Part shown: one piece after another, positions 30,515 to 31,270 of the stretch
Layout: each line of letters begins with the position of its first letter
Position numbering within the stretch: the first letter of the stretch is position 1
Source: Nitrososphaerota archaeon
GTDB lineage: Archaea > Thermoproteota > Nitrososphaeria_A > Caldarchaeales > Calditenuaceae
Direction: 5' to 3'
Assembly: GCA_038741355.1 (NCBI GenBank)
Contig: JAVYLC010000015.1
Location: forward strand, 539 to 32,538
Length of the DNA: 32,000 bases
Position numbers and translations under genes: made by a program
Notes under the pieces: model-generated
Seen by the model: the letters and a program-made list of their open reading frames with translations, nothing else
What the model was told of the DNA's origin: nothing
Databases searched by the model: none

Positions 30515-31270
30515 CTAAGTATTCTTTCTTCGTCCCTTGCTCGGTGTGTTTTTCAGAACCGCTGCTGTCAGCCTCGAAAGCGCGTATCTCGCCGTTTTGC
30601 TATAGAACTTGTTAACCCCCTTCCTGCCTTTGAATAATCCGAAGAAATTTTTGAGACGGCTAAAAGACCTGGTTCTTTCTACGTAAGGGATTATCTCTGC
30701 CAACGACTCTTTGGAAAGTAAACTGGTTATCCCAAGATCCTCCACCACCTTGTTGAAGTATGGGTATCTTTTCTCAGCCTCATCGACAATCACCTTCGCC
30801 ATTACTTTCATCTGCTCCTCTAAGGCCCTCACCGCATTCTTCAAAATATCCCTCTCAGAACCGTTCAACGCCTTCATCCTGTTAGTCAGAGCAGCATGGC
30901 TTTTTAGAAGGCTTCTATAACCACTGACAAGCCTACGCATAACCAGAAAACCCTCATCAATCTCTCTGAACCACTTTGGGTCTAAAGCCATCATTGCTCT
31001 GACGTCATTCCTAGAAGTCTTTGGAAGTTGAAGCTCTTTTCGCTTTTTGGCGAGCATTGTCAATCTGCGAAGGTATAGAATCTTAACGCCACGCCTGAGA
31101 ACCTCTACGAACTCCTCGGTGAGCTCTACGGGAATTGTATCTACGTAGAGCTCATCCCCGTGCTCAGCAGGGATGTCAGCGATCTTGCAGGTTTTGGCAA
31201 AGTTTATGCCGTCAACAGTGTAGACATGGAAGTTCTCTTCGCTCTTTCTGCTTCTGTTTTTGTCCGCCAT
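30515..31270 (-). CDS. Compact IS110-family-like recombinase/transposase (about 251 aa from ATG 31270)
   Basis: LPKTSRNDVRAMMAL...LVMRRLVSGYRSLLKSHAALTNRMKAL resembles the IS110 KTD..DA...L....LR.L.R.R..L......NRL block. LGITSLLSKESLAEIIPYVERTRSFSRLKNFFGLFKGRKG..FYSKTARYALSRLTAAV resembles the C-terminal IPGIG..TA..L.AEI.D..RF.....L..Y.GL.P....SG....G..RLR.ALY.AA block. The in-frame extension to 31465 was rejected as coding. Confidence 0.6.
   Translation of the reverse strand: MADKNRSRKSEENFHVYTVDGINFAKTCKIADIPAEHGDELYVDTIPVELTEEFVEVLRRGVKILYLRRLTMLAKKRKELQLPKTSRNDVRAMMALDPKWFREIDEGFLVMRRLVSGYRSLLKSHAALTNRMKALNGSERDILKNAVRALEEQMKVMAKVIVDEAEKRYPYFNKVVEDLGITSLLSKESLAEIIPYVERTRSFSRLKNFFGLFKGRKGVNKFYSKTARYALSRLTAAVLKNTPSKGRRKNT

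Follow-up and report, generated by a model that had tools for sequence, protein, structure and literature searches.

What kind of gene lies on the minus strand close to one end of the window (the whole stretch of 32,000 nucleotides analysed here), and does it travel as part of a mobile element? The earlier note had read it as an IS110-like protein of unusually compact form, with a shortened N-terminal domain and without a recognisable Ser-Gly motif. The IS110-like layout and the absence of the motif proved right, while the family assignment and the short N-terminus did not. The reading favoured here, with a probability of about 0.72, is that a lineage-specific selfish element of hot-spring archaea of the Caldarchaeales type has left one copy, now decaying, in the window; the element would consist of a protein guided by RNA and of the RNA that guides it.

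With regard to the reading frame, the gene itself exists, and the 252-aa version that begins at the internal Met at 31270 translates as it had been quoted. Moreover, the central and C-terminal blocks that had drawn attention are real, being conserved in 55 homologues. The conserved core of the protein begins at about 31303, and the homologues begin about 10 residues upstream of Met 31270, with a conserved strand that bears an invariant Asp. This first catalytic Asp (codon 31280-31282) stands four codons upstream of the Met from which the shorter version had been read. The count of only about 75 residues before the KT..ND block thus resulted from the start codon that had been picked. Read from the true start, the N-terminal domain is full, with a spacing of acidic residues near that of IS621, and the peptides VDGINFAKT and YVDTIP had been misassigned as the equivalents of the GIDVSK and EATG motifs. 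The two further RuvC-like Asp codons of the window copy lie at 31139-31141 and 31004-31006, and its fourth acidic position is occupied by Ser (codon 31013-31015).

The window copy is also damaged. A frameshift near 30545 puts the conserved C-terminal helix into another frame, and the ancestral stop codon (TGA, 30460-30462) falls within the basal helix of the RNA that follows the gene. Among the options raised before, a minimal active variant, a domesticated derivative or a decaying copy, it is the last that this frame-shifting loss of 5 nt bears out. In many other ORFs of the family there is no ATG, GTG or TTG near the conserved N-terminus, for example on C76, C7 and C19 of G000 (C-numbers label copies or sequences in the window's own genome), and the open frame of such ORFs continues straight from the structured leader. 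The coordinates of the features are collected in Table 1.

Table 1. Features of the element copy in the window, with tRNA sites from the same genome
Feature	Position	Strand	Evidence
Whole repeat unit (element copy)	30291-31834	minus	blastn against own genome; C24, C33 and C1 share 30291-31834
Distal 5' leader, ordinary composition	31576-31834	minus	nhmmer matches and copy alignment; common to C24, C33, C1, C9, C8 and C16
GC-rich hairpin block with 12-bp long-range closing helix (31323-31334 with 31564-31575)	31323-31575	minus	inverted repeat I9
ORF as it stands, 316 aa (open from 31465, ending at 30515)	30515-31465	minus	ORF list, family alignments, structure model
Frameshift site, 5-nt deletion in a short CA repeat	30541-30550	minus	alignment with four sister copies, three-frame translation
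Displaced remnant of C-terminal helix, other frame	30460-30540	minus	three-frame translation matches family C-terminus
Conserved structured RNA, candidate guide RNA	30288-30475	minus	covariance model R1, 165 bits for the window copy
5' loop strand L5, hypervariable, candidate guide A	30412-30427	minus	parsed from model alignment
Apical hairpin, perfect 20-nt palindrome between the loop strands	30392-30411	minus	inverted repeat I12
3' loop strand L3, hypervariable, candidate guide B	30377-30391	minus	parsed from model alignment
Flank common to C24 (beside its copy) and C13 (without the element)	30192-30290		blastn and three-junction comparison
tRNA sites with D-loop hairpin	G000 C19:5408-5531; C2 ~66900-67000; C76 ~2400-2520; C57:540-646; C4:46954-47053		

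The affiliation of the protein was addressed with sequence models and with a predicted structure. Neither start version matched anything in Pfam, NCBIfam, PHROGs or a single-sequence search of the PDB. The IS110 model DEDD_Tnp_IS110 (PF01548) gave no match for the window protein even at E values up to 10 and no match anywhere in this genome, whereas control genomes do match; among 49 relatives, it matched five weakly (best E 0.0098). Transposase_20 (PF02371) was absent from the matches of the window protein and of the 49 relatives. The earlier note had named a lack of significant hits to these two domains as what would speak against its own proposal, and since no significant match to either was found, the designation as an IS110 transposase fails on those terms. 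By contrast with the single sequence, a profile built from 49 diverse members found TIGR-TasR (9mty) as its top match among solved structures (E 1.7e-9) and also reached IS621 (E 2.6e-4). The AlphaFold (AF2) model made on the family alignment has a pLDDT of 94.5 and a pTM of 0.89. In Foldseek, it matched TasR with a TM of 0.65 (E 6e-8) and IS110 enzymes with a TM of 0.62-0.64, and VIA-align, in which the model could be aligned along its whole length with TasR and with the IS110 recombinases, gave Z scores of 16.4 for TasR (rmsd 3.2 over 243 residues), 14.7 for ISCro4 and 14.6 for IS621 (14.5-14.7 over about 255 residues for these two), 12-12.7 for TasH, with its Nop part only, and 7.3 for Nop5. 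The closest solved relative is TIGR-TasR and not an IS110 enzyme. The predicted structure nevertheless has the architecture of IS110 recombinases, with a RuvC-like domain, a coiled coil and a helical RNA-binding domain.

Regarding the active site, Asp 8, Asp 55, Asp 100 and Lys 95 are invariant or nearly so in the 49 sequences. Tested against a DEDD pattern, the family has three invariant Asp residues, an Asp rather than a Glu at the second position, and at the third (position 97) an Asp in 27 of the 49, with Ser or Ala across the subfamily of the window. In the canonical 285-aa form, the acidic residues stand at 8, 55, 97 and 100, a spacing nearly equal to that of IS621, where they reportedly lie at 11, 60, 102 and 105. 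No Ser is conserved across the 49 sequences, and likewise there is no conserved Tyr or His nucleophile. The Ser-Gly motif missed in the window protein is absent family-wide, the stretch aligned to the serine loop of IS621 being variable, Lys-rich and gapped.

The family is confined to Caldarchaeales-like archaea. The 55 homologues, retrieved by a word-indexed search, are all hypothetical proteins from Candidatus Caldarchaeum, Nitrososphaerota and one Thermofilaceae MAG, and an exhaustive profile search of 1.84 billion representatives led to only 154 clusters. The canonical protein has about 285 aa and ends in a conserved helix. Members are present in 32 of the 76 genomes of the class, with counts per genome of 0, 1, 2, 3, 5, 17, 24 and 32 in the genus of the window. 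The 1.65-Mb genome from which the window comes has 18 to 24 protein matches in two groups, one closer to the window protein (52-73% identity) and one distant from it (about 30%); several of these copies are truncated or interrupted by stop codons, and many are situated at the end of a contig. The DNA homology among copies reaches well past the ORF, across 30291-31834, with an identity of at most about 84% in this genome and about 93% in the relative with 32 copies, where recent copies were sought in order to define the ends and none above about 93% was found. Judged by their sequence identity, the copies are old. The patchy counts (0 to 32 in one genus) and the many truncated or stop-bearing copies argue for mobility, while the ceiling of about 93% on identity within a genome, with no sign of recent movement, argues against a selfish element.

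The limits of the element follow from the comparison of its copies. A repeated unit of the size of an insertion sequence had been proposed, of about 1.25 kb at 30360-31620; the unit is indeed repeated and of that size class, but its bounds are different, as the copies give 30291-31834 (1.54 kb). Internally deleted copies on C8 and C16 retain both element ends, and the exact 3' end was set by the comparison of C15, C24 and C13. The flank beyond it consists of the 3' end of a paralogous gene and an AT-rich box, and fixes the 3' boundary. On the 5' side, the GC-rich block has a fold energy of -176 kcal/mol (z = -5.5) and, translated in frame from ATG 31465, adds an N-terminal extension rich in Gly, Arg and Pro; this frame stays open, with in-frame indels, in C15, C24, C33, C48 and C26. 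The block was found in only eight copies of the same genome, all of one subfamily, and in one weak match. Its candidacy as a family-wide partner RNA was rejected because it is confined to one subfamily of this genome. As for the two structured parts that had been seen to flank the gene, the 3' palindrome does correspond to a conserved partner RNA and the 5' GC-rich block does not.

The partner RNA, of about 190 nt, overlaps the stop codon and adjoins nearly all genes of the family, including those of the distant subfamily and of other MAGs; it also occurs as about a dozen solo copies. In the window, where Rfam gave no match at its gathering threshold, the RNA is laid out as a long rod helix, a second hairpin and a T-rich, terminator-like tail. 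The covariance model R1 has 39 matches in the genome. In the alignment of 36 copies, 93.4% of the cells are paired and 13 pairs show compensatory double changes, values that are reached by 0 of 500 shuffles and are far above those of slid controls, in an alignment that had itself been fitted to the model. Two strands parted by the apical hairpin are enclosed within the rod by a conserved GC stem; the hairpin is conserved inside a subfamily and covaries between subfamilies. The scaffold comes in four types that track the protein subfamilies, with the window copy in type I, and in each type the same short motifs frame both variable strands in a pseudo-symmetric manner, the 8-13 nt between the motifs varying from copy to copy. 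The RNA has one variable internal loop, and a check by eye recognised no second loop matching the element ends. A TIGR-type array was considered and rejected, as there is no tandem guide array or tandem repeat near the gene and the covariance model search returned one unit for each gene. Several copies of type I (L041 on C8, L021, and G000 C3 ~6720-6890) have, after the RNA, a conserved 130-nt module that ends in an outward-facing TATA-like box and, on C3, precedes tRNA-Val(CAC).

The two loop strands were then compared with the DNA in their surroundings. At 13 of 36 loci, one loop strand has a perfect complement of at least 9 nt on the same DNA strand 40-740 nt downstream, and at 8 of the 36 a downstream complement of at least 10 nt, where permuted guides gave means of 1.1 and 0.22, respectively, and none of 300 permutations reached the observed counts. 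Same-sense matches downstream numbered 0 over the 36 loci, and those upstream of the gene were mildly enriched. Against a guiding function stands that a clear nearby target is found at only about 40% of the loci, and mostly for one strand. Two-strand tandem sites near each locus were no better than in permuted controls, and a genome-wide two-strand search with exact seeds did no better than shuffled guides, a null result that would be expected if the targets have already been split by insertions. Genome-wide matching of 11-mers was dropped as too noisy. The candidate guides of the window copy are AT-rich, and no target was found for them in its flanks or, in either orientation, in 19 family genomes.

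Several of the other matches involve tRNA genes. The L3 strand of C57 is complementary at 9 of 9 positions to the anticodon loop of the adjoining tRNA-Lys(CUU), a loop strand of C4 is complementary at 8 of 9 to tRNA-Arg(UCU), and loci in other MAGs match tRNA-Thr(CGU), tRNA-Val(UAC) and tRNA-Leu(CAG). Genes for tRNAs with an unusual D-loop hairpin are found 20-45 nt downstream of many units of the distant subfamily and of several solo RNAs. With regard to predicted empty targets, that of locus L021 was absent from 76 genomes, and a first guess for the tRNA-Lys target was not found either.

Evidence for the main reading also comes from filled and empty sites of two sister copies. The C19 copy has an orphan tRNA 5' part just upstream of its leader and a complete tRNA-Arg(CCU) just downstream of its RNA. 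Its flanks are contiguous in four other genomes, three from the same genus and one from a sister genus, where they make up an ordinary intron-less tRNA-Arg(CCU), so that the 1,535 bp that separate them here are an insertion. The empty site reads as 11 nt identical to L5 followed directly by 9 nt complementary to L3. The junctions, which are clean, have a stretch of 6 identical nt in common, and at its end the insert carries a promoter of its own and a 5' part that replaces that of the tRNA. For C76, the 20-mer predicted from the guide alone occurs once per genome in 9 of 18 related genomes (6 of 7 in the genus) and not at all in the window's own genome, and the reversed control gave 0. By sequence comparison, the loop strands of C19 and C76 spell a contiguous 20-bp tRNA-Arg site that is intact in related genomes and split here by a 1.5-kb insert; each guide strand encodes one half of the insertion site, the halves being read from opposite DNA strands. 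The split target is the anticodon arm of a tRNA gene, with the element exactly between the halves; the tRNA remains complete, since copies of this kind supply a promoter and a substitute 5' part that contains a hairpin 'intron'. Other copies were less informative: no empty site was found for C29, whose flanks being full of other repeats accounts for this, the missing tRNA 3' half was not found upstream of the C17 copy, and the window has no tRNA at all.

ARAGORN misses or miscalls the intron-bearing tRNAs beside the elements, and these tRNAs were read by eye. A similar AT-rich hairpin in the D-loop is present in tRNAs directly downstream of units of the distant subfamily, and this hairpin appears to have been brought in by the element. 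Additionally, at L040 (G000 C17:5423-5468) and L019 (~1340-1400), beside a unit of the family, 44 nt separate an intact tRNA-Val(UAC) from an orphan tRNA 5' half; this half is probably what is left of the gene that was invaded, a complete replacement tRNA having come along as cargo.

In the proposed explanation, an element would comprise a structured leader, a protein of about 285 aa with RuvC-like, coiled-coil and Nop-type parts, and a hairpin RNA that overlaps the stop codon and whose loop strands would act as guides. A dimer of the RNA-loaded protein would pair one guide with each DNA strand, as the tigRNA and the loops of bridge RNAs do. The RuvC site would cut the uninterrupted (empty) site, homologous repair by the host would copy the element in (homing), and the filled allele, with its site split, would be shielded from being cut again. 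Cutting followed by repair is favoured because the nearest characterised relative is a nuclease and the acidic triad is invariant, because there is no recombinase nucleophile, and because the flanking tRNA parts supply homology. Of these components, the RNA is preserved in the window copy, as are three of the four acidic positions of the RuvC site, and the C-terminal helix is lost. Against the proposal, the subfamily of the window has Ser or Ala in place of the fourth RuvC acid, and homing by repair poorly explains jumps to unrelated sites. It is doubtful, on balance, that the protein-RNA pair itself performs an RNA-programmed insertion without a serine or tyrosine recombinase domain; if it did, such a serine-free insertion would be a natural link between TIGR-Tas nucleases and IS110 recombinases, and the element, which would rebuild the genes that it enters, would be a direct source of archaeal tRNA introns and split tRNA genes.

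A diversity of insertion sites is easier to obtain by retargeting than by homology-dependent repair, and this is one reason to consider a true recombinase, in which the RNP would recombine a circular or excised donor with the target in the style of IS110 bridge RNAs, RuvC-type chemistry would replace the serine, and the element ends would be recognised through conserved portions of either the RNA or the leader. The full-length fold match to IS621 and ISCro4 (Z 14.6-14.7), guides that read both strands flanking a crossover as bridge-RNA loops do, and the clean junctions with their shared 6-nt identical stretch agree with such a mechanism. It is nonetheless unlikely, given that no Ser, Tyr or His nucleophile is conserved, that a single variable internal loop is present and no donor-binding loop was recognised, that terminal repeats or target duplications were not seen apart from the shared stretch, and that the closest solved relative, TasR, is a nuclease. 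An ordinary, if divergent, IS110/IS1111 insertion sequence that uses the serine mechanism with a bridge or seek RNA is far less probable still. IS1111-type elements have an RNA 3' of the gene, as here, and the motif layout pointed out before, the weak PF01548 matches in 5 of 49 relatives and the match of the family profile to IS621 point in the same direction. Set against these are the lack of any gathering-level match to PF01548 or PF02371, the variable Lys-rich stretch in place of the serine loop, and the behaviour of the profile search, which stopped at 154 clusters without expanding into IS110, a family far larger than that.

The units could instead be resident RNA-guided regulators that bind near a downstream promoter or tRNA gene and tune transcription like catalytically dead TasR and TasA. 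The guide complements that lie 80-640 nt downstream on the same strand, several of them on AT-rich promoter-like boxes, would suit this role, as would the age of the copies, the fact that some loci hold their position across species (C17/L019 and C8/L021) and the repression exerted by stem-loop Tas proteins (Xu et al. 2026, bioRxiv 10.64898/2026.09.09.750476). Such a role is quite improbable: the comparison of filled and empty sites reveals a true 1.5-kb insertion that splits the target of the guide, the three RuvC acids are invariant here whereas repressor TasRs have lost theirs, and the distribution is patchy (0 to 32 copies) with many broken copies. A purely regulatory role is unlikely given the insertions.

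The selfish-element reading can be placed among known RNA-guided systems. In stem-loop TIGR-Tas (Faure et al. 2025, PMC12045711, PDB 9mty; Xu et al. 2026, cited above), TasR is likewise a protein with RuvC, coiled-coil and Nop domains, and it is the best match by both sequence profile and structure. Furthermore, the guide unit of both systems is a pseudo-symmetric stem-loop in which a hairpin parts two short spacers, and in the empty sites of C19 and C76, too, the two spacers correspond to opposite DNA strands of a contiguous site, in adjacent halves. Unlike a TIGR-Tas array, the element has one guide unit per gene; its spacers measure about 11 and 9 nt, and the identity between the proteins is about 14-16%. 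Further differences are that it forms dispersed, multi-copy insertions with a guide matching its own insertion site, and that it is chromosomal in free-living archaea and carries replacement tRNA parts. The accessible portions of the supplements of the stem-loop TIGR-Tas paper contain no mention of Caldarchaeum, Aigarchaeota, Nitrososphaerota or Caldarchaeales. The IS110/IS1111 bridge-RNA recombinases IS621 and ISCro4 (Durrant et al. 2024, PMC11208160) are similar in overall fold (Z about 14.6) and in the spacing of acidic residues, and resemble the family in that a 1.5-kb mobile unit has no inverted repeats and that loop strands read both target strands around a crossover. In contrast to them, the family has no Pfam match and no catalytic serine, its second acidic residue is Asp and not Glu, and it has a single variable loop, a donor loop being unrecognised. 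The Nop5 protein of box C/D sRNPs shares the coiled coil and Nop domain (Z 7.3 over residues 117-282), but the match is far weaker, the RuvC acids are kept here, and the guides match both DNA strands and not RNA only.

The element has in all likelihood been encountered before. An insertion of 1,868 bp has been described in Caldiarchaeum subterraneum, with a 545-bp repeated region and an 813-bp ORF, present in six to seven copies, with a tRNA 5' fragment upstream and an intron-bearing tRNA downstream; a transposable element was proposed, with a 'DNA-binding/recombination' protein for which an origin from a plasmid integrase was suggested (Sugahara et al. 2012, PMC3293823). In the single-contig genome G012, the tRNA-Thr(CGU) of that study (503442-503515) abuts a gene of the present family (503741-504592), and the insertion almost certainly belongs to the same element family. 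As in that case, the window has a leader of about 0.5 kb (31303-31834) followed by the core ORF, and multiple copies per genome; the tRNA context is present at the sister copy C19 and absent from the window. A guide RNA, the TasR/IS110 fold or a match between guide and target is described for the element neither by Sugahara et al. nor in the TIGR-Tas papers.

The selfish element would represent a third use of a Nop-type guide-RNA module, beside IS110 recombination and TIGR-Tas cleavage or repression, and its compact protein (about 285 aa) would form, together with a single RNA of about 190 nt, a self-propagating unit that encodes its own address. It offers a testable mechanism for a twenty-year-old question, that of how archaeal tRNA genes come to have introns at odd positions and to be split. 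A thermostable RNP that reads a 20-bp site without an obvious flanking motif would also be of interest as a tool. For the window alone, the finding is modest, as the copy is old and frameshifted and its target search gave no match.

The window copy lies next to a contig end in a patchwork of other repeats, and rearranged repeats make up its flanks. One repeat, at 29874-30079 and about 200 bp long, has at least 15 copies in the genome, 88-93% identical, and is often found within about 1 kb of an element copy (C33, C1, C16 and C8); it has the look of a MITE or of a small-RNA gene. Segments of about 118 bp at 29798-29914 and 30073-30190 are 99% identical to C35:12517-12633 and C2:14211-14329, and represent recent patchwork duplications between an MBL-hydrolase gene and the element. 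Elsewhere, downstream of the C29 copy (L007 2503-2821; G000 C29 ~2940-3260), there are two short repeat families with 10-15 genome copies each. Past the 5' end of the element in the window, at 31863-32000, lies a further GC-rich repeat that is common to C68 (97%), C48, C9 and C1, and which may be another element or a common insertion target.
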